Notes under the pieces: generated by a model
Database searches by the model: none
What the model was told of the DNA's origin: nothing
Seen by the model: the letters and a program-made list of their open reading frames with translations, nothing else
Shown: positions 2,574 through 63,752 of the stretch, one piece after another
Position numbering within the stretch: the stretch's first letter is position 1
Layout: the number at the start of each line of letters is the position of its first letter
Assembly: GCF_001677475.2 (NCBI RefSeq)
Contig: NZ_CP015229.1
Strand: one strand, 5' to 3'
DNA length: 64,000 bases
DNA from: Escherichia coli
GTDB taxonomy: Bacteria; Pseudomonadota; Gammaproteobacteria; Enterobacterales; Enterobacteriaceae
Translations under genes and position numbers: made by a program

Positions 2574-3728
<1,155 letters not shown>

Positions 3729-3734
3729 TCAACA

Positions 3735-3760
3735 GCGGAGATCCCTTAAGGATCTCCGCG
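3735..3760 (+). other. Perfect inverted repeat (stem-loop) downstream of srlD, possible attenuator before gutM
   Basis: gcggagatcc cttaag ggatctccgc read directly; not followed by a T-run. Confidence 0.5.
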
Positions 3761-3774
3761 AGACTAATAGAATG

Positions 3775-3803
3775 CCTGATGCGCTACGCTTCTCAGGCCT
3801 ACA
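3775..3803. repeat. REP (repetitive extragenic palindrome) element
   Basis: gcctgatgcgctacgcttctcaggcctac, typical enterobacterial REP consensus, in the srlD-gutM spacer. Confidence 0.7.
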
Positions 3804-3833
3804 GGACTTCCGCCACTACATTAAGGAGAAGTT

Positions 3834-4193
3834 ATGGTATCCGCACTCATCACCGTCGCCGTTATCGCCTGGTGCGCGCAACTGGCCTTAGGCGGTTGGC
3901 AAATTTCTCGTTTTAACCGTGCCTTCGACACGCTATGTCAGCAAGGGCGGGTTGGCGTGGGCCGTTCCAGCGGGCGCTTTAAACCGCGGGTCGTGGTCGC
4001 CATCGCCCTGGACGATCAGCAACGCATCGTCGACACCTTGTTTATGAAAGGACTGACCGTCTTCGCCCGACCGCAAAAAATTCCCGCAATTACCGGTATG
4101 CATGCGGGTGATTTACAGCCCGATGTGATCTTTCCCCATGATCCACTATCACAGAATGCTCTATCATTGGCGCTTAAACTGAAACGTGGATAA
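3834..4193 (+). CDS. gutM: Glucitol operon activator
   Basis: 119 aa ORF with N-terminal hydrophobic segment, between srlD and srlR. Confidence 0.9.
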   Translation: MVSALITVAVIAWCAQLALGGWQISRFNRAFDTLCQQGRVGVGRSSGRFKPRVVVAIALDDQQRIVDTLFMKGLTVFARPQKIPAITGMHAGDLQPDVIFPHDPLSQNALSLALKLKRG

Positions 4194-4259
4194 TTTCGTT
4201 GTGAATGTTACTTGCTTGCGAAGTTATCATTTTGAAACCTAAATCAGGTAATCACGCCC

Positions 4260-5033
4260 ATGAAACCTCGTCAGCGTCAGGCCGCCATTCTGGAGTATCT
4301 GCAAAAGCAGGGTAAATGCTCGGTTGAAGAATTGGCGCAATACTTTGACACCACAGGCACAACCATTCGCAAAGATCTGGTCATTCTGGAACATGCCGGA
4401 ACCGTCATTCGTACTTATGGCGGAGTGGTGTTGAATAAAGAGGAATCCGATCCGCCTATCGATCATAAAACGCTCATCAACACCCACAAGAAAGAGCTGA
4501 TTGCAGAAGCTGCCGTTAGTTTTATTCATGATGGCGACTCAATAATTCTTGATGCTGGCAGTACCGTTTTGCAGATGGTCCCCCTGCTCTCGCGCTTTAA
4601 TAACATCACAGTGATGACCAACAGCCTGCATATCATCAATGCGCTATCCGAACTGGATAATGAACAAACTATCCTGATGCCAGGCGGAACGTTTCGTAAA
4701 AAATCGGCCTCATTTCACGGGCAGCTGGCAGAGAATGCCTTCGAACATTTCACCTTCGACAAATTGTTTATGGGCACCGACGGCATCGATCTCAATGCGG
4801 GCGTAACCACGTTCAACGAGGTTTATACCGTCAGTAAGGCAATGTGCAATGCCGCGCGCGAAGTGATTTTGATGGCGGACTCATCAAAGTTTGGCCGTAA
4901 AAGCCCCAACGTAGTTTGCAGTCTTGAAAGCGTCGATAAGCTAATTACCGACGCAGGTATCGATCCGGCGTTTCATCAGGCGCTGGAAAAGAAAGGGATC
5001 GATGTGATCATAACCGGAGAGAGCAATGAGTGA
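4260..5033 (+). CDS. srlR: Glucitol operon repressor, DeoR family
   Basis: 257 aa ORF with N-terminal HTH and DeoR C-terminal sugar-phosphate domain. Confidence 0.95.
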
Positions 5034-5991
5034 AGCACTACTGAACGCGGGACGTCAGACGTTAATACTGGAGTTGCAGGAAGCAAGCCGTTTACCGGAA
5101 CGTCTGGGCGATGATTTTGTTCGCGCCGCCAATATCATCCTGCACTGCGAAGGCAAAGTGGTGGTTTCGGGAATTGGCAAATCGGGCCACATTGGTAAGA
5201 AAATCGCCGCAACGCTTGCCAGTACCGGCACACCGGCTTTTTTTGTCCATCCCGCAGAAGCACTGCACGGCGATCTGGGGATGATTGAAAGCCGCGATGT
5301 GATGCTGTTTATCTCTTACTCCGGTGGTGCGAAGGAACTGGATCTGATTATTCCGCGTCTGGAAGACAAATCTATCGCGCTGCTGGCGATGACCGGCAAA
5401 CCGACGTCACCGCTGGGCCTGGCGGCAAAAGCGGTGCTGGATATCTCCGTAGAACGCGAAGCCTGTCCGATGCACCTTGCGCCGACCTCCAGCACCGTCA
5501 ATACCCTGATGATGGGTGACGCGCTGGCGATGGCGGTCATGCAGGCACGCGGATTTAATGAAGAAGATTTTGCCCGCTCCCACCCAGCTGGGGCACTGGG
5601 CGCTCGCTTGCTGAATAAAGTGCATCATCTGATGCGCCGTGATGACGCTATCCCACAGGTAGCATTAACCGCTAGCGTGATGGACGCGATGCTGGAACTC
5701 AGCCGCACCGGTTTAGGTCTGGTGGCAGTGTGCGATGATCAACGACTGGTGAAAGGCGTCTTTACTGACGGCGATTTACGTCGCTGGCTGGTTGGCGGCG
5801 GCGCACTCACCACGCCAGTTAATGAAGCGATGACGACAGGCGGCACCACATTACAGGCGCAAAGTCGCGCCATCGACGCTAAAGAGATCCTGATGAAGCG
5901 CAAAATCACTGCCGCACCGGTGGTGGATGAAAACGGCAAACTCACCGGCGCAATTAACCTGCAGGATTTCTATCAGGCCGGGATTATTTAA
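5026..5991 (+). CDS. gutQ: D-arabinose 5-phosphate isomerase (SIS + tandem CBS domains)
   Basis: 321 aa ORF with SIS motif [15 protein letters not shown] and C-terminal CBS pair; overlaps srlR stop. Confidence 0.95.
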
Positions 5992-7502
5992 TCCTTCAAT
6001 CCCAGACGTTTCGCCAGCCGATGCAGGTTGGCGACGTCGGTTTCCAGCATCCGCGCGCAGGCGGCCCAGTTGTGATGATTTTGTGCCAGTGCCTGGCGAA
6101 TAGTTTCACGCTGGAACGCTTCTGTCGCTTCACGCAGATTTTGCTTAATAACGGGCACCGCCGCCGCTTCTGGCGTCGGCAACGTCACCTCAGGAAAAGC
6201 AAAATGTTGCGCCTCAAGAATCACTTCATCGCCGCTGCGGGTGGCTCTCGACAGTACTACCGCCCGATGAATAGCATGTTCCAGTTCACGCACGTTTCCC
6301 GGAAAACTGTAGTGTTGCAGTAAATTTCGCGCTCCGGAACTTAACACTACGCGGGAGAGCCCCAGCCGCAAACGGCACTGCTCACAGAAATACCCCGCCA
6401 GAAGAGTGACGTCATCGCCCCGCTCACGCAGCGGCGGCACCGAAAGCGGAAACACGCTCAGGCGATGGAACAAATCGGCGCGGAATCGCCCTGCCAGCAC
6501 CTCTTCACGCAAGTCGCGGTTAGTCGCCGCCAGCACGCGCACATCGACCCGCAAACTGCGGTCATCGCCAACGCGCTGAATATCGCCATACTGCAACACC
6601 CGCAGCAGCTTGGCCTGCAATGCCAACGACAACTCGCCGATCTCATCGAGAAACAGCGTGCCGTTATCCGCCATTTCAAACTTCCCGCTGCGGTTACTGA
6701 TAGCGCCAGTAAACGCTCCTTTCACATGCCCGAACAATTCACTTTCCGCCACACTTTCCGGCAGTGCGGCACAGTTGAGATAGACCAGCGGATTCACCGC
6801 CCGTGGCGAGGCTTCATGAATCGCTTTCGCCACCAGCTCCTTACCGGTTCCCGTCTCACCGCTGATTAAGACGTTGAGATCGGACGCCGCCACAATCTCA
6901 ATCTCTTTTTTTAATTGCGTCATACCTGGCGACAGACCGATCATCTGCGTCTGTTTCACCGCTTCAAACGGCGCGGCATCGCCCGGCAGCATATTCTGGC
7001 TTTCCAGTTGCTCAATCAGCAACGCATTGCTTAACGCTCCCGCCGCCAGCGCGGCAATCAGGCGTAACTCTTCGTCGCTGAAAACATCGAACTGATCGGG
7101 CTGCATCCCGTCGAGCGTCAGTGCGCCGATCAGGTTTTGCCCGGCAAACAACGGCAGACCAACGCAGGCGTGAACCTTCAGTCTCTCCTGCCCGGGAATC
7201 AAACCGTCATAGGGATCGGGCAATTCGCTGTCTGCGGGAAAGCGCACCACGTCCCCAGCGCGGGCAATCGCTTCCAGCCGAGGATGCCCTTCCAGCGCAA
7301 AGCGTCTACCGAGTACATCCTTCGCCAGCCCGTCGATGGCAAGCGGAATAAACTGCCGCGAGTCGTAACGTAGCAACGCAGACGCATCGCACTCCAGCAC
7401 CTGACGCAGCGTGGTGATCAGGCGCTGAAAACGATCCTGATGACCAATCCCACGCTGCAATTCGATGGCGATATTCGCCAGCACATCAACGGAAAAACTC
7501 AT
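5988..7502 (-). CDS. norR: Anaerobic nitric oxide reductase transcriptional activator, sigma54-dependent (GAF-AAA+-HTH)
   Basis: 504 aa ORF with Walker [15 protein letters not shown] motif and C-terminal HTH; divergent from norVW; its 3-prime end overlaps gutQ by 4 nt in convergent orientation. Confidence 0.95.
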
Positions 7503-7514
7503 CTTTGCCTCACT

Positions 7515-7570
7515 GTCAATTTGACTATTGATATTGTCATATTGACCATTTTATTGATAGTCATTTTGAC
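7515..7570. promoter_or_regulatory. Three NorR enhancer sites of GT-N7-AC type
   Basis: gtcaatttgac (7515-7525), gtcatattgac (7537-7547), gtcattttgac (7560-7570) read directly; matches the known NorR site architecture upstream of norV. Confidence 0.85.
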
Positions 7571-7625
7571 TACTCACTAATGAGCATAAATTAATTTATA
7601 CATTAAAAACAATCAGATAAAAAAC

Positions 7626-7640
7626 TGGCACGCAATCTGC
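7626..7640 (+). promoter_or_regulatory. Sigma54 (-24/-12) promoter of norVW
   Basis: TGGCAC-gcaat-CTGC about 50 nt upstream of norV ATG, downstream of the NorR sites. Confidence 0.8.
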
Positions 7641-7688
7641 AATTAACAAGACATCTTTTTAGAACACGCTGAATAAATTGAGGTTGCT

Positions 7689-9128
7689 ATGTCTATTGTG
7701 GTGAAAAATAACATTCATTGGGTGGGTCAACGTGACTGGGAAGTACGTGATTTTCACGGCACGGAATATAAAACGCTGCGCGGCAGCAGCTACAACAGCT
7801 ACCTCATCCGCGAAGAAAAAAACGTGCTGATCGACACCGTCGACCATAAATTCAGCCGCGAATTTGTGCAGAACCTGCGTAATGAAATCGATCTGGCGGA
7901 TATCGATTACATCGTGATTAACCATGCAGAAGAGGACCACGCCGGGGCGCTGACTGAACTGATGGCGCAAATTCCCGATACGCCGATCTACTGTACAGCC
8001 AACGCTATCGACTCGATAAATGGTCATCACCATCATCCGGAGTGGAATTTTAATGTGGTGAAAACTGGCGACACGCTGGATATCGGCAACGGCAAACAGC
8101 TCATTTTTGTCGAAACACCAATGCTGCACTGGCCGGACAGCATGATGACTTACCTGACAGGCGACGCGGTGCTGTTCAGTAACGATGCTTTCGGTCAGCA
8201 CTACTGCGACGAGCATCTGTTCAACGATGAAGTGGATCAGACCGAGCTTTTCGAGCAGTGCCAGCGTTACTACGCCAATATCCTGACGCCGTTCAGCCGC
8301 CTGGTAACGCCGAAAATTACCGAGATCCTGGGCTTTAACTTGCCAGTCGATATGATAGCGACCTCTCACGGCGTGGTATGGCGCGATAACCCGACGCAAA
8401 TTGTCGAGCTGTACCTGAAATGGGCGGCGGATTATCAGGAAGACAGAATCACCATTTTCTACGACACCATGTCGAATAATACCCGCATGATGGCTGACGC
8501 TATCGCCCAGGGGATCGCGGAAACCGACCCGCGCGTAGCGGTGAAAATTTTCAACGTCGCCCGAAGCGATAAAAACGAAATCCTGACCAATGTCTTCCGC
8601 TCAAAAGGCGTGCTGGTCGGCACTTCGACGATGAATAACGTGATGATGCCGAAAATCGCCGGGCTGGTGGAGGAGATGACCGGATTGCGCTTTCGTAATA
8701 AACGCGCCAGTGCTTTCGGCTCTCACGGCTGGAGCGGCGGTGCGGTGGATCGTCTTTCCACTCGCCTGCAGGATGCAGGTTTCGAAATGTCGCTTAGCCT
8801 GAAAGCCAAATGGCGACCGGATCAGGACGCTCTGGAGTTATGCCGTGAACACGGTCGTGAAATTGCCCGTCAATGGGCGCTTTCGCCGCTGCCGCAGAAC
8901 ACGGTGAATACGGTGGTTAAAGAAGAAACCTGTGCCACCACGACGGCTGACCTCGGCCCACGGATGCAATGCAGCGTCTGCCAGTGGATTTACGATCCGG
9001 CAAAAGGCGAGCCAATGCAGGACGTTGCGCCAGGAACGCCGTGGAGTGAAGTCCCGGATAACTTCCTGTGCCCGGAATGTTCACTCGGCAAAGACGTCTT
9101 TGACGAACTGGCATCGGAGGCAAAATGA
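7689..9128 (+). CDS. norV: Anaerobic nitric oxide reductase flavorubredoxin
   Basis: 479 aa ORF with metallo-beta-lactamase-like HxExDH motif, flavodoxin region and C-terminal rubredoxin CxxC...CxxC. Confidence 0.95.
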
Positions 9129-10258
9129 GCAACGGCATTGTGATCATTGGTTCGGGCTTCGCCGCCCGCCAACTGGTGAAAAATATTCGCAAACAGGACG
9201 CCAGTATTCCATTAACCCTGATTGCCGCCGACAGCATGGATGAGTACAACAAACCTGACCTCAGCCATGTGATCAGTCAGGGGCAACGTGCCGACGACCT
9301 TACCCGCCAGACGGCAGGTGAATTTGCCGAGCAGTTTAATCTGCGCCTGTTTCCGCACACCTGGGTGACGGATATCGATGCCGAAGCCCATGTGGTGAAA
9401 AGTCAGAATAATCAGTGGCAATACGACAAGTTAGTGCTGGCAACCGGTGCCAGCGCCTTTGTCCCGCCAGTGCCCGGGCGTGAGTTAATGCTGACGTTAA
9501 ATAGTCAGCAAGAGTATCGCGCCTGTGAAACGCAACTGCGGGATGCCCGACGCGTGTTGATTGTCGGCGGTGGTTTGATTGGTAGCGAACTGGCGATGGA
9601 TTTTTGTCGTGCAGGCAAAGCGGTCACGCTAATCGACAACGCTGCCAGTATTCTGGCATCGTTAATGCCACCGGAAGTAAGCAGCCGCTTGCAGCATCGG
9701 TTGACGGAGATGGGCGTTCATCTGCTGTTGAAATCTCAGTTGCAGGGGCTGGAAAAAACGGATTCTGGCATTCGGGCAACGCTGGATCGCCAACGCAGCA
9801 TCGAAGTGGACGCGGTAATTGCCACAACCGGACTGCGCCCGGAAACCGCCCTGGCACGACGCGCCGGGCTGACGATTAATCGCGGCGTTTGCGTCGATAG
9901 TTATCTGCAAACCAGTAATGCCGATATTTATGCGCTGGGCGATTGCGCAGAAATTAACGGTCAGGTACTGCCGTTCCTCCAGCCGATTCAACTTAGCGCG
10001 ATGGTGCTGGCAAAAAATCTTCTCGGCAATAACACGCCGCTGAAACTACCGGCGATGCTGGTGAAAATCAAAACGCCGGAATTACCGCTGCATCTGGCAG
10101 GCGAAACCCAGCGTCAGGATTTACGCTGGCAGATTAATACCGAACGCCAGGGAATGGTGGCGCGCGGCGTTGACGATGCTGACCAGCTTCGCGCCTTTGT
10201 GGTCAGTGAGGATCGGATGAAAGAGGCATTTGGATTGTTGAAAACGTTGCCGATGTAG
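9125..10258 (+). CDS. norW: NADH:flavorubredoxin oxidoreductase
   Basis: 377 aa ORF with two GxGxxG/A dinucleotide folds ([16 protein letters not shown]); start overlaps norV stop. Confidence 0.95.
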
Positions 10259-43041: not shown

Positions 43042-44469
43042 TTATTGACGCGCGGCCAGCATAGCGGTCAGTTTTTCAGCCCAGGCTTTGGTTTCCGGCA
43101 AATCCACCACCGGCTGGCTGTAGTGACCACGGTTGTCCGGGGCGACAGGCGTGGTGGCGTCGATAATCAGCTTGTCGGTGATGCCTGCCGGGCTTGAGCC
43201 AGGGTCGAGTTCCAGCACGGACATATTTGGTAGTTGCACCAAGTCGCCCGCCGGGTTCACTTTCGAGGAGAGCGCCCACATCACCTGCGGCAGGTTGAAC
43301 GGGTCAACGTCTTCATCGACCATAATCACCATCTTCACGTAGCCCAGACCGTGCGGCGTGGTCATCGCACGCAGGCCCACCGCGCGGGCAAAGCCGCCGT
43401 AGCGTTTTTTGGTGGAGATAATCGCCAGCAGGCCGTGGGTGTACATGGCGTTTACCGCCTGCACTTCCGGGAACTCGGCTTTCAGTTGTTGATACAGCGG
43501 TACGCAGGTGGCTGGCCCCATCAGGTAGTCGATTTCGGTCCACGGCATGCCGAGGTACAGCGATTCGAAAATCGGCCTGGTGCGGTAAGAGACTTTATCG
43601 ATGCGCACCACGGTCATGTTACGCCCGCCGGAGTAGTGTCCGGTAAACTCACCGAACGGCCCTTCGATTTCGCGTTTACGGCTTTCGATGACCCCTTCGA
43701 GGATCACTTCTGAACCCCACGGCACATCAAAACCGGTCAGCGGGGCGGTAGCGATCGGGTATGGGCTTTCACGCAGCGCGCCTGCCATTTCATACTCAGA
43801 CTGATCGTATTTCAGTGGCGTAGCCCCCATCAGCGTGATGATCGGATCGTTACCGAGCGTGATCGCAATCGGTAGATCTTCACCGCGCTCTTCTGCTTTA
43901 TGTAGATGCAGGGCGATATCGTGCATCGGCACCGGTTGTAGGCCGAGCTTTCGCTTGCCCTTCACTTCCATGCGGTAGATGCCGACGTTCTGCTTGCCGA
44001 AGTTATCCGGGTCGAGCGGATCGCGGGAAACCACGCAGGCTTTGTCGAGATAGAAACCGCCATCGCCATCGTTTAAACGAAACAGCGGCAGGATATCGAA
44101 CAGGTTAATCTCGTCGCTATCAACGGTGTTCTGCGCCCAGGCAGGATTGGCGCGGCGCTCCGGGGCAATCGGGAAGTTATCCCAGCGGCGAATAAACTCA
44201 TCAATCTGTTTTTTAACCGGAGTGTTTGCCGGCAGGCCGAGGGAAATCGCATGGTTCTGCCAGGAACCGATGGTATTCATCGCCACGCGGGCATCGGTAA
44301 AGCCGCGAATATTGTCAAACCACAGCGCCGGTGCGCCGTCGCCGATACGCCCGGTGGCGTTAGCTGCTGCTGCCAGATCCGGCTCAGCGTTCACCTCTTC
44401 GCTGATTTTCAGTAACTGGCCGTGGTCATCAAGCGCCTGTAAAAAGCTGCGTAAATCATCAAATGCCAT
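43042..44469 (-). CDS. ecdC: UbiD-family (prFMN-dependent) aromatic acid decarboxylase, subunit C type
   Basis: 475 aa ORF with UbiD-like core (GPFGEFTGHYSG); ATG at 44467-44469 overlaps the upstream gene's stop. Confidence 0.85.
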   Translation of the reverse strand: MAFDDLRSFLQALDDHGQLLKISEEVNAEPDLAAAANATGRIGDGAPALWFDNIRGFTDARVAMNTIGSWQNHAISLGLPANTPVKKQIDEFIRRWDNFPIAPERRANPAWAQNTVDSDEINLFDILPLFRLNDGDGGFYLDKACVVSRDPLDPDNFGKQNVGIYRMEVKGKRKLGLQPVPMHDIALHLHKAEERGEDLPIAITLGNDPIITLMGATPLKYDQSEYEMAGALRESPYPIATAPLTGFDVPWGSEVILEGVIESRKREIEGPFGEFTGHYSGGRNMTVVRIDKVSYRTRPIFESLYLGMPWTEIDYLMGPATCVPLYQQLKAEFPEVQAVNAMYTHGLLAIISTKKRYGGFARAVGLRAMTTPHGLGYVKMVIMVDEDVDPFNLPQVMWALSSKVNPAGDLVQLPNMSVLELDPGSSPAGITDKLIIDATTPVAPDNRGHYSQPVVDLPETKAWAEKLTAMLAARQ

Positions 44470-45062
44470 TATTTATTCTCCTGAGAAAAATTCCGGGCCT
44501 GCGGCAATCCTTGCCAGCGCCTGGCGTGGGGATGTTCGAGGCCAAATTGATCCAGCACGCGGGCTACCACATGGTGGACAATGTCATCTACCGTTTCGGG
44601 ATGGTTATAAAAGGCAGGCATCGGCGGCACCATCGCCACGCCCATGCGTGAAAGTGCGAGCATATTTTCGAGATGGATGGTGCTAAGCGGCATTTCACGC
44701 GGCACCAGCACCAGTTTGCGGCCTTCTTTGAGCACGACGTCCGCCGCGCGCCCTACCAGGCCATCGGCGTAACCAGCGCGGATACCGGAGAGCGTTTTCA
44801 TACTGCACGGAATAACGATCATGCCGTCGGTACGAAAAGAACCGGATGAGATGATCGCCGCCTGATCCGCCGGGTTATGGCTGAAGTCTGCGAGGGCAGC
44901 AACATCGCGAGCGCTGTAAGGCGTTTCCAGTTCAATGGTGGTTTTCGCCCACTTCGACATCACCAGATGAGTCTCGACATTCGGCATCTCCCGCAGCGCT
45001 TGCAGTAATGCCACACCAAGAGGCGCACCGGTAGCCCCTGTCATCCCGACGATCAGTTTCAT
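44469..45062 (-). CDS. ecdB: UbiX-family flavin prenyltransferase (decarboxylase subunit B type)
   Basis: 197 aa ORF starting MKLIVGMTGATGAPLGVALLQAL, flavoprotein fold like UbiX/Pad1. Confidence 0.85.
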   Translation of the reverse strand: MKLIVGMTGATGAPLGVALLQALREMPNVETHLVMSKWAKTTIELETPYSARDVAALADFSHNPADQAAIISSGSFRTDGMIVIPCSMKTLSGIRAGYADGLVGRAADVVLKEGRKLVLVPREMPLSTIHLENMLALSRMGVAMVPPMPAFYNHPETVDDIVHHVVARVLDQFGLEHPHARRWQGLPQARNFSQENK

Positions 45063-45736: not shown

Positions 45737-46729
45737 TTACTCGCGGAACAGCGCTTCGATATTCAGCCCCTGCGTTTGCAGGATTTCGCGCAAACGGCGC
45801 AGGCCTTCAACCTGAATCTGGCGAACACGTTCACGGGTGAGGCCAATTTCACGACCTACATCTTCCAGTGTTGCCGCTTCGTACCCCAGCAAACCGAATC
45901 GACGTGCCAGTACTTCACGCTGTTTGGCGTTCAGCTCGAACAGCCATTTGACGATGCTCTGCTTCATATCGTCATCTTGCGTGGTATCTTCCGGACCGTT
46001 CTCTTTTTCATCGGCCAGGATGTCCAGCAACGCTTTTTCGGAATCACCACCCAGCGGGGTGTCTACCGAGGTAATGCGCTCGTTAAGACGAAGCATACGG
46101 CTGACGTCATCAACTGGCTTATCCAGTTGCTCTGCGATCTCTTCCGCACTTGGTTCATGGTCCAGCTTATGGGACAACTCACGTGCGGTTCGCAGGTAAA
46201 CGTTCAGCTCCTTTACGATGTGAATCGGCAAACGAATAGTACGGGTTTGGTTCATAATCGCCCGTTCAATCGTCTGGCGAATCCACCAGGTTGCGTATGT
46301 TGAGAAGCGGAAACCACGTTCCGGGTCAAACTTCTCTACCGCGCGGATCAGCCCCAGGTTGCCCTCTTCGATCAGGTCCAGCAACGCCAGACCACGATTG
46401 CCATAACGGCGGGCAATTTTTACCACCAGACGCAAGTTACTCTCGATCATCCGGCGGCGGGAGGCAACATCTCCACGCAGTGCGCGACGCGCAAAATAAA
46501 CTTCTTCTTCGGCCGTTAACAGTGGTGAATAACCAATCTCACCAAGGTAAAGCTGAGTCGCGTCCAACACACGCTGTGTGGCTCCCTGCGATAACAGTTC
46601 CTCTTCGGCCAAATCGTTATCACTGGGTTCCTCTTCTACTAAGGCCTTTTCGTCAAAAACCTCAACTCCGTTCTCATCAAATTCCGCATCTTCATTTAAA
46701 TCATGAACTTTCAGCGTATTCTGACTCAT
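45737..46729 (-). CDS. rpoS: RNA polymerase sigma factor sigma-S (sigma-38)
   Basis: Start at ATG 46727-46729 ([21 protein letters not shown]) gives 330 aa, intact, with Glu at codon 33 (no internal stop). The track start at 46765 is an extension. Confidence 0.97.
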
Positions 46730-46791
46730 AAGGTGGCTCCTACCCGTGATCCCTTGACGGAACATTTAAGCAAAAGCCTGGTTCCGCCGAT

Positions 46792-47931
46792 TTATCGCTG
46801 CGGCAAATAACGCAGCGGGTTTACGGATTTCCCCTTGTAACGAATTTCAAAATGCAAGCGTGTTGAACTGGTTCCGGTGCTACCCATGGTTGCTATTTTT
46901 TGCCCCGCCTTCACTTCTTGTTGTTCCCGGACCAGCATTGTGTCGTTATGGGCGTAGGCACTCAGGTAATCATCATTATGTTTGATGATAATCAGATTAC
47001 CGTAGCCGCGCAGCGCGTTACCGGCATAAACAACGCGGCCATCTGCGGTCGCGATAATTGCCTGTCCTTTGCTGCCTGCGATATCAATCCCCTTGTTGCC
47101 CCCCTCAGAAGCGCCAAAGGTTTCGATCACTTTACCCTCAGTCGGCCAGCGCCAGGTGGAGATAGGCGTACTGGTTGATGTACTGCTGACAGTCGGCTCG
47201 GTTGTGCTTGCTGTTGGTACCGTTACAGGCGCTGTGACCGTGGTCGCAGTTGGCTTGTTGTTCGGCAACATTTTGTTAGCACTCTGTTCACCCGAAGACT
47301 CAGAATACGTAATTGTCGGTTGCGAAGCAACAGCAACGGTGGAATTTTGTGCAGGCTTGATCACAACTCCTTGCTCTGCTGCGTCGGCCTGGGTAATGGC
47401 ATTTCCGCCAGTGATTGGAGTACCGGAAGCATTCCCCACCTGTAAGGTCTGACCGACGTTCAGCGCGTATGGTGCCTGAATATTGTTGCGCTGAGCAAGG
47501 TCACGGAAATCGTTGCCAGTAATCCAGGCGATATAGAAAAGTGTGTCGCCTTTTTTCACTGTATAGGTACTGCCGCTATAACTGCCTTTCGGAATGTTCC
47601 CATACTGACGGTTATAGACGATGCGTCCGTTTTCCATCTGTACCGGCTGCTGAGCTACTGGCTGCACCGGCTGGATTTGCGGTTGTTGAGTGGCCTGAAT
47701 TTGTGGCTGCTGTACCGGCTGAATTTGCGGTTGCTGAGTTGTAGACGTCGTCCCCATTTTCGGCGGCGGCGTAATCAACATACCAGAATTGGTATTTGCA
47801 GGCGCATTGCCATTAACGGAGCTGACCGGGGCCGGTGGATTTGAAGTGTCAGAACAGCCTGCCAGCCATAGCGAAACCAGTGACAAAGCCGCAATGCGGC
47901 GAACGGTGAATTTTGGGCTTCCCGCGCTCAT
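46792..47931 (-). CDS. nlpD: Murein hydrolase activator lipoprotein NlpD (LysM + M23 peptidase-like)
   Basis: 379 aa ORF with lipobox LAGCS, Gln/Pro-rich repeats, LysM and C-terminal LytM domain. Confidence 0.95.
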
Positions 47932-56816: not shown

Positions 56817-57516
56817 GGGAGTTCTACCGCAGGGGCGGGGAACTCCAAGTGATATCCATCATCGCATCCAGTGCGCCCGGTTTATCCCCGCTGGCGCGGG
56901 GAACACCAAATCCAGCCAGCCGCCGACGGTAATCACCCCGGTTTATCCCCGCTGGCGCGGGGAACACTATGGGGTAGGGCGCTATCAGACATTTACGCAC
57001 GGTTTATCCCCGCTGGCGCGGGGAACACTGCAAGTAACGTTAAGGGAACCGTGGAGACAGCGGTTTATCCCCGCTGGCGCGGGGAACACTTAGAAAACGC
57101 AATGAGCCGCGCGCCCATACCCGGTTTATCCCCGCTGGCGCGGGGAACACGGCACGCTGGACTGAACAAATCCCTGGGCCATCGGTTTATCCCCGCTGGC
57201 GCGGGGAACACACTTACAACCACAATAATAAAAAAAGCCTCGTCGGTTTATCCCCGCTGGCGCGGGGAACACGCCGCTATCTCACCACCAGAACTGTTAC
57301 CCGTCGGTTTATCCCCGCTGGCGCGGGGAACACTTGCAGTGGATAGTCATGTAGCCCGCGCGGGCCGGTTTATCCCCGCTGGCGCGGGGAACACTTTAAA
57401 TACTGCCGTTCCAGCTTGTTGATCGCCGGTTTATCCCCGCTGGCGCGGGGAACACCGTAACTGCCTGTACACGCTGTAATGGCTCACCGGTTTATCCCCG
57501 CTGGCGCGGGGAACAC
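56817..57516 (-). CRISPR. Type I-E CRISPR array: 12 repeats (11 canonical + 1 degenerate terminal) and 11 spacers of 32 bp
   Basis: 29 bp repeat cggtttatccccgctggcgcggggaacac (plus strand) at 56878, 56939, 57000, 57061, 57122, 57183, 57244, 57305, 57366, 57427, 57488 with exact 61 bp period; degenerate repeat gggagttctaccgcaggggcggggaactc at 56817-56845 at the leader-distal (iap) end. The crRNA is read from the minus strand. Confidence 0.98.
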
Positions 57517-57612: not shown

Positions 57613-58822
<1,210 letters not shown>

Positions 58823-58826
<4 letters not shown>

Positions 58827-59473
58827 GCCTCTGCTCCGGGTTTGATCAGCATCAGACCACAACCGAACGCCCGGCTTTTGCCATACCCCTGACTGAGACG
58901 TTGCAGAAATAACCCAGGATCGGTGACCGTAAGCATCCCCGTATAATCCACGCTACTGAACTGGATCAGTTGCCGGGAGTTTTCCCGCCGCAGTTGCTGT
59001 TGTCGGTAGGCATCAACCGAAGTATCCAGCAGTGTAAAACCGCTTCTCTCCCCCTGCGCTGCCAGCCAGTTCAGCGCAGCCTGTTGTTGATGCAACCAGA
59101 CATCACTTCCTTCCACCGGCCCCCTCACCTGCCGTTTCGCCTCCATCAGCAAGTCGTGGCGTTTGCCCGCTTTACAAATTGTTGGATTCGCCCGCAGGTT
59201 GAAACAAAGGGATTGTCCGGTACGCAACTCTGGCGCAAATGGTCGGCATTCGATGGTGAAAATATCACTTTCCGCCGGGCGTTCCTGCGACAGGACAAAA
59301 AAGCGAAACGCCCCCTGGAGTTCTTCCCGACGATAAAGAAATTGCCTTTCTTTGCCGCCAGGAAAAAGATCCCACAGCCACTGATGCATTACATATTCAC
59401 CGCGATCCACCAAATGCAGCAACTGCGCAGGCGAAAGCTGGCCGGTATGTAATGTTATTCTTGAGAGGTACAT
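58823..59473 (-). CDS. cas6e: crRNA endoribonuclease Cas6e (CasE/Cse3)
   Basis: Start at ATG 59471-59473 (MYLSRITLH, matching the conserved MYLS N-terminus); glycine-rich C-terminal loop GCGLMLIKP. The track start at 59611 overlaps cas5. Confidence 0.9.
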
Positions 59474-60201
59474 GGTTCCTCCTTGCTGAGCCACGGCCCC
59501 TGATTGATGGTGCGTTCCCCAAACAGCCACTGCTGACGATTTAAAGGAACATCCCGGCGACGTAATATTTTGCTCGCGACCAGGCCGTCGTGTTCCCCTT
59601 CCCACCAGCATTCATCCTGAAGTTTCGGGAGTGAGACTTTCAGTTCGCGGAAACTATCCTGATACTGTTGGTATGCGTTACGTAAGACATCAGACGCGTT
59701 GCCTTCGAGCAGTAACGGCGCAAGTGGTAACGCCAGCGGATGACTTTTTCGCCCCAGATAAAGCGGAAAAACCGGATGACGTAAACCGTCCTGCAACTGT
59801 TCAAGGCTGTAAGGCGCATCGGGGGTTGTTGCCACCGCCACCATCCACCAGGCATCGGTGTAGTAGTCGCGCCGGGAGATAATCGCGCTCAGAAGATCAG
59901 GGGCGCTCAACTCTTCGCGACGGCTGAAATAACGCGCTTTACGCACCTCTTTTGGCATCTGGACCGTGTGATAATCCCGTGCCCAGCGCGGGTTACGGCT
60001 GGCGCAAACCACCAGTGAATAGTGGCGGTTAAACGCGTTTAATCGTTCGGTATCATCACGCCGAATCCCTACCCCGGCAGCCAGCAGCCCCAGCAATGCT
60101 GAGCGCGAAGGCAGTTCATGGGTATGACGCACTTCGCCGGGGGCATCGACGCCCCAGGATGCCATTGGCCCATGAAGCTGAAAAATCAAATATTGGCTCA
60201 T
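59455..60201 (-). CDS. cas5: Cascade subunit Cas5 (CasD)
   Basis: 248 aa ORF MSQYLIFQLHGPMASWG, conserved Cas5e N-terminus. Confidence 0.9.
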   Translation of the reverse strand: MSQYLIFQLHGPMASWGVDAPGEVRHTHELPSRSALLGLLAAGVGIRRDDTERLNAFNRHYSLVVCASRNPRWARDYHTVQMPKEVRKARYFSRREELSAPDLLSAIISRRDYYTDAWWMVAVATTPDAPYSLEQLQDGLRHPVFPLYLGRKSHPLALPLAPLLLEGNASDVLRNAYQQYQDSFRELKVSLPKLQDECWWEGEHDGLVASKILRRRDVPLNRQQWLFGERTINQGPWLSKEEPCTSQE

Positions 60202-60211
60202 TAGCCGCCCC

Positions 60212-61267
60212 TTACGCGCAGATAAAGTCCAGCACGTCCTTCATGCTTCCCTGTTTGTTCATCACGTCAAAGCTTGCGCATTCGGTCTTCTGTTCATAGA
60301 CCGTATTCATATTTTCGCGAAGCGTTGTAATACGCTGCACCGCCACATCTAACTGCCGGGTGCCATTAATGGGTTCATAGAAAGCCGCCGCCAGAGAGCG
60401 TGGTTGTTCAGTGCCTTTTTCTGCCAGCGCCCAGGAGGCGTAGGCACGGCTGGCAAAGCTGTTCTGTTTGCCGGTTGGGGAGACTTTAAGTGCGGCTTCC
60501 GTAAAGGCGCGCAAGGTCTGATTAGCTAACGCTTCGTCACCGCCGAGGTTTTCGACCAGCAGATCTTTATCGATGCAGATATAGGTGTAGAACAGCGCAG
60601 AACCGAATCCGGTTTCACCAAGATGCCCGGCACCGGCATCTTCAGAAGCCTGGCGCAAATCATCAACGGCGGTGAAAAAATCATCTTCGACAATCGTTTC
60701 ACTGACACCAAATGCATGCGCGACCTGGCAGGCGGCTTCAACATTAAATTCGGGTTTATTCGCCAGCATACGACCAAACATAGCGATATCTACTGCCATG
60801 CGATCTTTACGTAACAAAGCGAGATCTTCCTCTTTTGGCGCGCGCTTTTCTTCGGCCAGTTGATGGGCCAGCGCTTTTACGGCGTCAAATTCTGCCGGGC
60901 TGATATGGACTAGCTGTTCAGTTTCGGCGTTAGTGAGCGGATCTTTTGGTTTTTTGTCGTTTTTAGCTTTCCCAAGATAATCCGCAATTTTCGCCGCCCA
61001 TTCGATGGCTTTTTTCTCTTCGATGCCTTTCTCAATCAGGATAGTTGCCGCCTCACGCGCAATACGCCCACTGCGAATACCAATATGGCCCGCCAGCGCC
61101 TGTTCAAAAAGTGCAGAAGTGCGCCACGCACGTTTCAGACTTTGTGAGGAAACGCGCAGACGCGTTGCTCCACCCAGTACCACAGTTTTTGGCGCACCGG
61201 TGTCATCACGGTTAAGGTTGGCAGCAGGGTAAGCGGTTAACAAATGAAGCTGAATAAATGTCGTCAT
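60212..61267 (-). CDS. cas7: Cascade backbone subunit Cas7 (CasC/Cse4)
   Basis: 351 aa ORF MTTFIQLHLLTAYPAANLNRDDTGAPKT, Cas7e signature. Confidence 0.9.
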   Translation of the reverse strand: MTTFIQLHLLTAYPAANLNRDDTGAPKTVVLGGATRLRVSSQSLKRAWRTSALFEQALAGHIGIRSGRIAREAATILIEKGIEEKKAIEWAAKIADYLGKAKNDKKPKDPLTNAETEQLVHISPAEFDAVKALAHQLAEEKRAPKEEDLALLRKDRMAVDIAMFGRMLANKPEFNVEAACQVAHAFGVSETIVEDDFFTAVDDLRQASEDAGAGHLGETGFGSALFYTYICIDKDLLVENLGGDEALANQTLRAFTEAALKVSPTGKQNSFASRAYASWALAEKGTEQPRSLAAAFYEPINGTRQLDVAVQRITTLRENMNTVYEQKTECASFDVMNKQGSMKDVLDFICA

Positions 61268-61281
61268 GAGATAGTCCTTTA

Positions 61282-61818
61282 TTAATTTTGTTCGTTATCG
61301 GCGTCGCCAGCCTGGTAATATTCCAGCGCCCAGCGGATACGGATAAATTCTGTTGGCCGCTGCTGGCGGCGGTGATGATTGAGCAGATCGTCGCTCTCCT
61401 GGCACCAGCGGAAAATATCGTCTGCCAAAGAGATAAGATTGACGGAACCATTTAATAATTTGACCGCGCGACGTAACTGGCGCAGTAATTCATCCGGCGT
61501 TTTGACTGCCGACAGGCGAGTAAAACGCCCCTCAGACATTACCGCCGCCAACTGCGCGGCAAAAGGCTGCCGTTCATCAATGGCTTTTACATTGGCGGCA
61601 ACGGCGGCAACCAGCGCCAGTGCGGTAAAACGCCACTCCTGTGATTCAATTTTCCACAACGTGTGGGTCTGCATCAGCAGTGAACGAAACCCTTCTGACA
61701 GACAAACATCATTAACCGTTGTGCTACGCCGCAGACTGGCACGATTGCCGCGTTTTTCCTGCAACTCTTCGTGCCATTTACGCAGCGTGGCTTTGTGCTC
61801 CTCTTTTACAATACTCAT
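61282..61818 (-). CDS. cse2: Cascade small subunit Cse2 (CasB)
   Basis: 178 aa ORF; its ATG overlaps the cse1 stop (ATGA). Confidence 0.88.
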   Translation of the reverse strand: MSIVKEEHKATLRKWHEELQEKRGNRASLRRSTTVNDVCLSEGFRSLLMQTHTLWKIESQEWRFTALALVAAVAANVKAIDERQPFAAQLAAVMSEGRFTRLSAVKTPDELLRQLRRAVKLLNGSVNLISLADDIFRWCQESDDLLNHHRRQQRPTEFIRIRWALEYYQAGDADNEQN

Positions 61819-63377
61819 TCAGCAGCCTCCTGCTTTTTCTCCCTGGCGGCTTTAGCACTTTGCTTCTCCGCCGATGTTGTAAAATATTTCTTGCGCGCGG
61901 TCATGACGCGTTTCAAATCAACGGGCTCATAAGGATTAGTGAATACACGCTCGTCAAAATCCTGACGCGCGAATAACCAAATTTCCTTTTGCCATTTGCC
62001 GAGTAATTCATCCGCATCCTGACCTTCTTCAATTTGGCGCACTAACCTCAGGAAGCGATGCTGAGTTTTGTTCCAGAAGTCGATATCCACAAAACTGAAA
62101 TCACCCCTTGCACCTTTTGGATCGGAGAACCATGCTTCTTTCAATGCACTCCGTAACAGACTCAGAATCCGTGAAGCCGTTTGCGCAGCCAGCCGCAGCT
62201 TCGGTATCTGGCCTTCTTTTTTATTGAGCAGTAGCGGGAAATGGTGTTCGTACCAACAGCGCGCTTTCATGTTGTCAAAATCATAACCAAATCCCCACAG
62301 GCCCACTTTTGCCTGTTTCAGACTGCTGGCATTAAAGAGTTTCACCACCAGCGCGGGAAGTTCCGTATTGTTTTCTGATTTACCCGTTTCGATAAGGCCT
62401 AACCAGTCGCGCCAGATTAAACCGCCCGGTTGTGGTTTAACGGAGTAAAACTCGCCACCCTCTTTAAGTGGTACACGGTAAGGCGTTAAGGGATGCTGCC
62501 ACATGGCATAATTGGCACCATAATTTTTGGTCGTCATCAGGCTCAGGAGCGCGTCGTTCTGCTCGTCGCAAATATCGCAGTTGCCGACTGTCGTGGTATT
62601 AAAATCAATACGTATACGCCGCGGCATTCCCCAGTACGCCTGGAGTTTATTGACCTGATCATGGGTTACCACCGCACCGGCCAGTTCGCTGGTACGCGTC
62701 GGGCCTAGCCAGGGGAAAATCAGATCGTCAAATTTTTTGGGTAGCGGTAAGTCGGCTTCATCCTGCGGCATCACGTTGAGCCACAGTTTGCGCCACAAGG
62801 GTGTTTGTTGATTGCCCTGATATTCCTGTAATTCAATGAGAGTCGTCATCGGCCCACCGCCGCGTAAACCGGTGCGATAGCCTTTGCCGCCCGCGGGTGC
62901 ATTCAACTGTAAAGAGAACAAGGCCAATGCTAAGCAATGGGGGCACAGATATTCCGTTACACCCCGCTTGATAAAATGGTCTTTATTAAACTTCGTCGTT
63001 TGAGAACCGGGAATCTCAGGCAGTAGCGAAGCGACCGGAACTTTATCTCCCGTGAGCGCCTCAAAATCCTGCATAAATGAAGGGGAATCTGGCCCAAACT
63101 GGAAAGCATGTTCTAAGGACAGCAATGCTTCCCGTAGCTTTTCAGCTTCCAGTCCGTCTTCCCAGATATCATCCCAACGACGATGATCTTTTGGCGCGAA
63201 GCTGGTTTGTAGTAGCCCCAGCAAAAACTGCCAGGCCGCCCCCTGGAGATCTGCCCGCGGCGCAGCGATATCGACAACATTTTCATCCGCCAGATCGACT
63301 GGCGCCAGTTTGCCTGTCGTTCCGTCTTTATAACGAACGGGCAACCACGGGGTTGTTATAATTGAAAAAAATTCCAT
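61815..63377 (-). CDS. cse1: Cascade large subunit Cse1 (CasA)
   Basis: Start at ATG 63375-63377 (MEFFSIITTPWLPVR) gives 520 aa; the sequence is clearly not the K-12 CasA as I recall it, so this is the other E. coli I-E variant. Confidence 0.88.
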   Translation of the reverse strand: MEFFSIITTPWLPVRYKDGTTGKLAPVDLADENVVDIAAPRADLQGAAWQFLLGLLQTSFAPKDHRRWDDIWEDGLEAEKLREALLSLEHAFQFGPDSPSFMQDFEALTGDKVPVASLLPEIPGSQTTKFNKDHFIKRGVTEYLCPHCLALALFSLQLNAPAGGKGYRTGLRGGGPMTTLIELQEYQGNQQTPLWRKLWLNVMPQDEADLPLPKKFDDLIFPWLGPTRTSELAGAVVTHDQVNKLQAYWGMPRRIRIDFNTTTVGNCDICDEQNDALLSLMTTKNYGANYAMWQHPLTPYRVPLKEGGEFYSVKPQPGGLIWRDWLGLIETGKSENNTELPALVVKLFNASSLKQAKVGLWGFGYDFDNMKARCWYEHHFPLLLNKKEGQIPKLRLAAQTASRILSLLRSALKEAWFSDPKGARGDFSFVDIDFWNKTQHRFLRLVRQIEEGQDADELLGKWQKEIWLFARQDFDERVFTNPYEPVDLKRVMTARKKYFTTSAEKQSAKAAREKKQEAAE

Positions 63378-63752
63378 ACGCTTTCCTCGCAAATAAGACC
63401 ATCCATGGTAGGTTGTCCATCACCATATTCAAGAATCAATCGAAAAGAGAGATTACATCATATTAAATGAATATATTGAAAATTAGATTATTATTAAATA
63501 ATCAATAAATCACACGAATATATAAAGATAATTTTCTATAATGCTTTTCGCTCAGGCTCTATCACTTAATAAAAACCAAAGTATTCTTTATCAAAAGGTT
63601 TTTCAACTCTGCTTCCGGACATTGTTACATATATCAATAACTCTTAGAGATTTTCTTTATTTCGAATAACCCTTATTTTTGATATAAACGTCTTCAGTTC
63701 CCTGTCTAAGGGATTAACCAAGTTAGTGATACACGTATATCATTTTATGCTC
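63378..63752 (-). promoter_or_regulatory. AT-rich cse1 upstream region (cas operon promoter region)
   Basis: About 375 bp of very AT-rich DNA between the cas3 end and the cse1 start, as expected for the cas operon promoter region. Confidence 0.7.

Follow-up and report, generated by a model that had tools for sequence, protein, structure and literature searches.

A conserved stem-loop inside the norR coding sequence accompanies the fused gutQ-norR junction of Enterobacteriaceae

Since there is no spacer between the convergent genes gutQ and norR of Escherichia coli, the signal for the 3' end of the srl-gutQ mRNA appears to be encoded within norR: our comparative analysis indicates that a stem-loop lying shortly downstream of the gutQ stop codon is upheld by selection on the synonymous sites of norR. 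We lean, with moderate confidence, towards this stem-loop being a protective 3' element of an srl-gutQ mRNA that is terminated by Rho. It is this embedded and synteny-dependent hairpin, and not the overlap between the two genes, that is the new contribution of this work, and it belongs to a known kind of 3'-end element.

The fused gutQ-norR junction and its conservation

The junction was analyzed in a stretch of 64,000 nucleotides of E. coli DNA (contig NZ_CP015229.1), which we refer to as the window. A first-pass annotation had reported that gutQ and norR converge with overlapping stop codons, and the gene names, coordinates and stops that it gave proved correct: the two stops share two bases of a 4-bp TTAA (Table 1). 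The gutQ open reading frame (ORF; 321 aa) finishes with GGG ATT ATT TAA, the last codon being the stop at 5989-5991, and that of norR (504 aa) finishes with AAG GAT TAA, whose stop corresponds, in reverse complement, to the TTA at 5988-5990. Both products gave full-length matches, far over cut-off, to their equivalog models (GutQ with NCBIfam NF008581, 671 bits over 321/321 positions; NorR with NCBIfam NF003451, 824 bits), showing that these are two real convergent protein-coding genes. Their neighbours are srlD, gutM and srlR upstream of gutQ, and norV and norW beyond norR. The same 4-bp overlap is annotated in K-12 MG1655 (gutQ at 2829813..2830778 on the + strand, norR at 2830775..2832289 on the - strand) and likewise in strain C8. 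The stretch was found in 5425 of 5426 complete E. coli genomes, and identity over 2949-10258 was 96-97% with K-12 and strain C8, and 96.2% with Escherichia sp. E1V33. Two co-directional overlaps were also seen nearby, one of 8 bp between srlR (4260-5033) and gutQ at 5026-5033 and one of 4 bp between norV and norW at 9125-9128, both of which fit translational coupling within an operon.

Table 1. Features of the gutQ-norR junction (window positions) and places of hairpin decay in the NorR tree
Feature	Position	Strand	Description and basis
gutQ CDS	5026..5991	+	arabinose-5-phosphate isomerase; terminal gene of the srl/gut operon; ORF list, NF008581, annotation
norR CDS	5988..7502	-	sigma-54 enhancer-binding NO sensor; ORF list, NF003451, K-12 annotation
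Stop/stop overlap TTAA	5988..5991	.	central TA (5989-5990) common to both stop codons
Conserved stem-loop	6005..6038	+	GACG-UU-UCGCCAGCC-GAUGCA-GGUUGGCGA-CGUC; MFE fold, alignment
C-rich, G-poor RNA antisense to norR	6332..6791	+	predicted Rho loading/termination zone
Modest C>G stretch, RNA antisense to gutQ	5688..5827	-	160-300 nt past the norR stop; composition scan
Decayed hairpin, NorR tree place 1			adjoining Klebsiella
Decayed hairpin, NorR tree place 2			Siccibacter, Leminorella, Symbiopectobacterium
Decayed hairpin, NorR tree place 3			Enterobacter sp. BIGb0383
Decayed hairpin, NorR tree place 4			Intestinirhabdus, beside Citrobacter
Decayed hairpin, NorR tree place 5			Xenorhabdus, within the Enterobacter/Leclercia group

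Elsewhere in the window, a CRISPR array occupies positions 57000-57516 with a 61-bp period and the repeat CGGTTTATCCCCGCTGGCGCGGGGAACAC; no Rfam model reports this array. The next features after it are long ORFs clustered on the - strand (57903-63392), which we take to be cas genes. Two further ORFs of 475 and 197 aa, at 43042-45062 on the - strand, adjoin ORFs at 45737-47931 that are presumably rpoS and nlpD; we assume that K-12 has no such ORF pair here, in which case 43042-45062 would be a known variable segment near rpoS.

[quoted passage not shown] TGA is impossible in such an overlap because the central dinucleotide belongs to both stops, and the TTAA found at gutQ/norR is one of the four legal tetramers, [C/T]TA[A/G], with both stops in frame. 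The gutQ-norR overlap has the orientation, tetramer and length of this class and does not differ from it in kind (PMC2174442): it is ordinary, already annotated and of a textbook type, and thus not new. What is added here is a survey of orthologues, together with the derived 8-bp and 38-bp overlaps that this survey revealed.

For this survey, NorR was scanned using one genome per species and the best 80 loci were kept; gutQ lies beside norR in 70 of them. The overlap measures 4 bp in 58 of these 70 gutQ-adjacent species (TTAA in 27, TTAG in 21, CTAG in 9 and CTAA in 1, in norR orientation), 38 bp in eight (Klebsiella, Raoultella and one relative) and 8 bp in two, both Enterobacter, while the remaining two carry recent insertions at the junction. 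Altogether, some overlap is found in 68/70 adjacent species, and all four legal tetramers are represented. [Enterobacter] lignolyticus, where gutQ and norR are adjacent, has an 8-bp overlap. In the species with a 4-bp overlap, either gene may have TAA or TAG, switching at its private stop position, and the common TA is invariant, a pattern which indicates that the fused junction is ancient in Enterobacteriaceae and has been stable there. We obtained no gutQ located away from norR from a homologue search whose matches were all relatives at 77% identity or more and in which one candidate was checked.

The species with a 38-bp overlap (survey loci L066, L073 and L077-L082, from Klebsiella, Raoultella and Enterobacter sp. 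JUb54) share a 7-nt deletion just 5' of the norR stop, which shifts the norR frame so that norR runs 38 bp into gutQ. Their NorR C-terminus is different and ~11 residues longer; the hairpin is kept in this group, only 6 nt past the gutQ stop.

A stem-loop maintained within norR next to gutQ

The first-pass annotation had also held that the junction leaves no intergenic terminator space. This stood as far as a spacer is concerned, since the two CDSs overlap by 4 bp, but a probable 3'-end signal is nevertheless present, in the form of a conserved stem-loop that begins 14 nt past the gutQ TAA and falls within norR codons 489-500. This stem-loop consists of 13 bp and of two optional outer pairs (6002/6040 and 6003/6039), and the opposite strand encodes NorR residues D489-R499 plus the first base of the L500 codon. 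The 34 nt fold with a minimum free energy (MFE) of -20.6 kcal/mol; when the segment 5999-6041 was folded, the + strand gave -23.5 kcal/mol versus -18.9 kcal/mol for its complement. An identical stem-loop is found in K-12, at 2830792-2830825. The 34-mer occurs only once in the window, which rules out a REP-like repeated element. Rfam covariance models gave no match at E<=1 in 4800-7800 and none at gathering score over the whole window.

Pairing was assessed in an ungapped alignment of 59 genomes, one per species, displaying the 4-bp overlap. In this alignment, 92.7% of the cells were paired and 7 of the 15 pairs were invariant; changes on both sides were found at three pairs, two of which belong to the core stem (columns 84/105 and 90/99, each going from CG to UA). 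Registers slid by 1-3 columns, used as a control, were only 9-58% paired, and RNAalifold recovered the same helix. All 13 pairs can form on the + strand in 60 of the 70 gutQ-adjacent species versus 5 of 70 on the - strand, the latter count being so low because of an A.C mismatch; this strand assignment depends largely on a single, almost constant G.U pair with a U that is set by an Asn codon, the remaining strand-specific cells of the 59-genome alignment being roughly balanced (5 versus 4).

Two rearranged junctions involve the hairpin directly. In Kosakonia quasisacchari (locus L049, 5463-5689), a tandem repeat at the junction (83 bp x 2.7, 94% matches) corresponds to a duplicated norR 3' end including the hairpin, so that a 243-bp gap separates the two stops. 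The copy on the gutQ side, which is now non-coding, forms a perfect Watson-Crick stem in which G-C has replaced the G.U pair that the Asn codon otherwise imposes; the two middle copies have one mismatch each. In Enterobacteriaceae bacterium UBA7338 (locus L063, 5519-6490), a prlF-yhaV toxin-antitoxin cassette (PF15937, PF11663) lies between gutQ and norR. It was inserted within the left arm of the hairpin, with a ~21-bp direct duplication (CAAGCCCAGCCGCTTCGCCAG) on both flanks, and gutQ now precedes a canonical terminator-like sequence, GCGUUC-UACUGU-GAACGC-UUUUUCUU.

The codons that carry the stem-loop also stand out when synonymous variation is considered along norR. The seven 11-codon windows of lowest synonymous entropy in the whole gene all fall at codons 483-501, with 0.52 bit where the mean over norR is 1.05. 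In a normalised scan, in which each codon was compared with the mean for its amino acid and from which the Citrobacter amalonaticus row (L021) was removed on account of an internal stop, the global minimum of norR was located at codons 489-499 (-0.64 bit/codon), a value that none of 5000 permutations reached (P<2e-4). The norR sequence left out (C. amalonaticus AUH_CA_2023_1) is interrupted by a stop codon or bears an ambiguous base, and may be a pseudogene or a sequencing error. Constraint follows the pairing at the level of single sites: third positions that are paired (D489, V490, A491, N492, A497 and R499) have entropies of 0-0.3 bit, those of R495 and L496 are intermediate (0.4-0.6 bit), and those in the loop or bulge are free (H494, CAC/CAT 42/16; K498, AAA/AAG 36/22). 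The rare codon CGG is used at R495 in 52/59 species. Applied to gutQ, the same normalised permutation scan yielded no window in which synonymous constraint was significant (P=0.17). An antisense protein gene was considered as a source of the constraint, as a + strand ORF (6021-6323) has its AUG/GUG start in the hairpin loop; this ORF was ruled out, being 8 to >200 codons long among the 59 species when the constraint is limited to ~11 codons.

The 11-residue peptide encoded by the stem-loop segment is identical in 79 of the 80 species, and it is the genomic neighbourhood that separates those that keep the hairpin from those that do not. Among the best 80 NorR loci, at least 12 of the 13 pairs are kept in 68 of the 70 gutQ-adjacent species versus 2 of the 10 non-adjacent ones (Fisher p=6.6e-8, treating species as independent, with no phylogeny correction), and the mean hairpin MFE is -20.0 kcal/mol in the former 70 versus -10.0 kcal/mol in the latter 10. 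Decayed hairpins are found at at least five separate places in the NorR tree (Table 1), and Klebsiella/Raoultella, which are equally divergent (78-79% identity), have retained theirs. Both non-adjacent species in which the hairpin persists are near kin of gutQ-adjacent ones, which suggests that they were rearranged recently. The adjacency pattern and the strand pairing counts thus indicate that the element tracks gutQ and fit an RNA of gutQ sense.

The 3' ends of the two convergent transcripts

Canonical and bidirectional intrinsic terminators between convergent genes likewise place a G+C-rich hairpin at the junction, but here there is no U-tract on either side, no A-tract, and the hairpin lies wholly inside one CDS. 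The tail located 3' of the stem reads GGUUUCCAGC (GGUUUCC) in the window and CAUCUCC or CAGUUCC in other genera (Enterobacter, Klebsiella), so that at most three U follow the stem, as UUU in Escherichia, Salmonella and Citrobacter. Since this tail varies and since its synonymous site, the third position of E487, is free (GAA/GAG 29/28), no U-tract is being selected for. A terminator scan for a G+C-rich stem-loop followed by at least 5 U in 8 nt made no + strand call in 5991-7500. With a hairpin devoid of a selected U-tract, RNA polymerase probably continues into antisense norR.

Downstream of the hairpin, the composition of the RNA changes: in 80-nt windows past the gutQ stop, the C/G ratio is 0.8-1.35 up to +340 and 1.2-2.3 between +340 and +800. 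In K-12, a Rho (bicyclomycin-sensitive) termination region was mapped at 2831288 on the + strand and classed as antisense to norR (Adams et al., PMC7815308 Suppl. 2). Upstream/downstream reads were 87/25 without bicyclomycin and 130/197 with bicyclomycin, giving a Rho score of 5.27 (p=2e-12), a score that is coarse since it was computed over 800-nt windows (PMC7815308). By ungapped alignment (96.0% identity), this site corresponds to position 6501 of the window, ~510 nt past the gutQ stop. That K-12 + strand RNA reaches a Rho region at ~+510 argues against termination on the gutQ strand before the overlap, although this signal could stem from an antisense promoter within norR rather than from gutQ read-through.

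In LB or in glucose, repression of the srl operon is to be expected. The curated Term-seq tables of PMC7815308, from LB/glucose cultures, contain no 3' end for gutQ or norR, and TERMITe has no entry for them. A second Rho region from the same dataset lies inside srlR (K-12 2829346, window ~4559, + strand; 697 reads upstream and 76 downstream without bicyclomycin, score 3.7; PMC7815308), so most + strand transcription in LB may stop short of gutQ.

The arrangement seen at gutQ resembles one that was previously described for Rho-dependent transcripts of E. coli. Such transcripts have precise steady-state 3' ends directly after stable stem-loops without U-tracts, these ends may fall in downstream coding regions, C is enriched over G 3' of them, and the stem-loops shield the RNA against PNPase and RNase II (Dar & Sorek, PMC6061677). 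Like them, the gutQ hairpin is stable, comes soon after the stop and has no U-rich tail; RNA with more C than G, chiefly from +340 on, and, in K-12, a coarsely located bicyclomycin-sensitive region may be further points in common, and a location inside the CDS of the next gene also occurs in that class. It differs in being known from sequence rather than as a mapped 3' end, and in sitting in the helix-turn-helix segment of a convergent gene. Evolutionary constraint and loss with synteny, which are documented here, were not addressed in that study (PMC6061677).

Under the reading that we favour, in which the stem-loop protects a Rho-terminated mRNA, the polymerase would pass the gutQ stop and the hairpin and enter antisense norR, where the untranslated C-rich RNA would permit termination by Rho a few hundred nt downstream (~+510 in K-12, window 6501). 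3'-to-5' exonucleases would then shorten the transcript as far as the hairpin, and the mature srl-gutQ mRNA would be protected by it. The stable overlap with the norR mRNA would thus be only ~50-60 nt long, even if polymerases would still cross ~1/3 of norR head-on.

For norR transcripts, the - strand sequence offers less. The only candidate Rho-entry zone predicted for them is the modest C>G stretch within gutQ (Table 1), and they presumably end by Rho within antisense gutQ. Up to 160 nt past the norR stop, no conserved - strand structure was found (RNAalifold, -4.4 kcal/mol with scattered pairs). A terminator-like site at 5947..5934 on the - strand, 41 nt past the norR stop, was rejected: it has 5 pairs, 2 of them G.U (-4.1 kcal/mol, z=+0.13), and it is unconserved, lying within the variable GutQ codons 302-307. 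Terminator-like sites as a whole are unremarkable here, with 7 in 3 kb versus 3.5 expected.

Among other explanations for the hairpin, one that we hold as possible, if tentative, is that it acts as a weak or non-canonical intrinsic terminator, an insulator that would stop most srl polymerases within ~50 nt of the gutQ stop. Antisense transcription through norR would thus be avoided on sorbitol induction, and the Rho region at +510 would only clear read-through. The stem is strong enough (~-20 kcal/mol) to make this conceivable, UUU directly follows it in three genera (Escherichia, Citrobacter and Salmonella) provided that both outer pairs are formed, and some partial intrinsic termination is plausible in these genera. 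In addition, an intrinsic terminator is predicted within the partner gene for ~20% of the genes that take part in convergent overlaps in E. coli (PMC2174442), and a hairpin whose retention is tied to gutQ adjacency would suit an insulator equally well as a stabiliser. However, a tail with no more than three U, which is replaced by CAUCUCC or CAGUUCC in Enterobacter and Klebsiella, a synonymous site that varies freely within this tail and the silence of the consensus terminator scan all argue against an insulator, as does the measurable + strand RNA at the Rho site 510 nt downstream in K-12 (PMC7815308).

We consider it quite unlikely that the structure instead serves norR, be it as a - strand RNA element (acting on stability, translation termination or ribosome pausing) or as a DNA palindrome bound by a protein. 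It is true that the complement folds too (-15 to -19 kcal/mol), that the compensatory CG-to-TA changes keep a DNA palindrome as well and that a few cells pair on the - strand only (CA on the + strand). Yet the hairpin decays in norR genes that have no gutQ neighbour, with NorR and the peptide unchanged, the A.C mismatch disrupts the - strand version in 65/70 species, and trimming as far as this hairpin, whose end lies 15 nt upstream of the norR stop, would leave an mRNA without a stop codon; a symmetric protein site would also not account for the UU bulge, which is asymmetric, or for the conservation of the lower stem. Finally, that the junction holds nothing functional besides a neutral, frozen 4-bp overlap, the conservation of the hairpin being a by-product of codon bias and common descent in a highly conserved helix-turn-helix segment, is hardly credible, for although the peptide is invariant, several fixed codons (CTG, GCG, AAC, GAC) are common ones and the species are related, making counts non-independent, the minimum persists after amino-acid normalisation (P<2e-4), the rare CGG is fixed at R495 in 52/59 species, unpaired third positions of the same 11 codons vary freely and at least five separate non-adjacent lineages change synonymously at exactly the hairpin sites.

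Convergent transcription and what the hairpin means for the two genes

The transcripts of gutQ and norR must overlap at their 3' ends, as the first-pass annotation had pointed out, since a complete mRNA of either gene covers the stop of the other, and K-12 data agree with this (PMC12288877, PMC7815308). Indeed, of the MG1655 convergent excludons that ExcludonFinder recovered in 50% or more of 58 RNA-seq samples, 165 in all, gutQ-norR is one (PMC12288877). Such a listing is almost automatic for this pair, because a 4-bp coding overlap makes any co-expression count as an overlap. As in other convergent excludons, the gutQ and norR units have no functional relation and 3' transcript ends overlap in the K-12 data (PMC12288877).

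Whether the sorbitol and NO-stress units interfere with each other, as had also been suggested, is only a possibility. Our literature search found no report of a sorbitol-dependent change of norR, of reciprocal repression or of RNase III processing for gutQ-norR. In Salmonella, a ~two-fold higher signal was seen for gutQ and srlR after addition of an NO donor, by qPCR on random-hexamer cDNA (PMC4960098); such cDNA cannot separate strands, so that sense gutQ RNA and read-through from the opposite side are indistinguishable in this assay. A duplex of ~50 nt between the mature gutQ and norR RNAs is possible. We regard as unlikely a true excludon, in which sorbitol-induced srl transcription would lower NorR via head-on collisions and/or RNase III cleavage of a duplex, with the hairpin limiting the antisense reach; if it were true, the NO response would be tuned to the carbon source.

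The stem-loop offers a clean natural case of a probable RNA 3'-end signal of one gene constraining the synonymous sites of its convergent neighbour. The constrained segment of norR encodes a DNA-binding helix, and the constraint relaxes once gutQ and norR part. Recoding or deleting the norR 3' end, or replacing the gutQ-norR region (as in PMC5696343), may consequently alter the stability of the srl-gutQ mRNA, and assays of gutQ, srlR or norR that are not strand-specific cannot tell sense transcripts from convergent read-through. Scans for synonymous constraint, when combined with breaks in synteny, can find 3'-end signals of Rho-terminated transcripts that Term-seq misses in operons not expressed in standard media.
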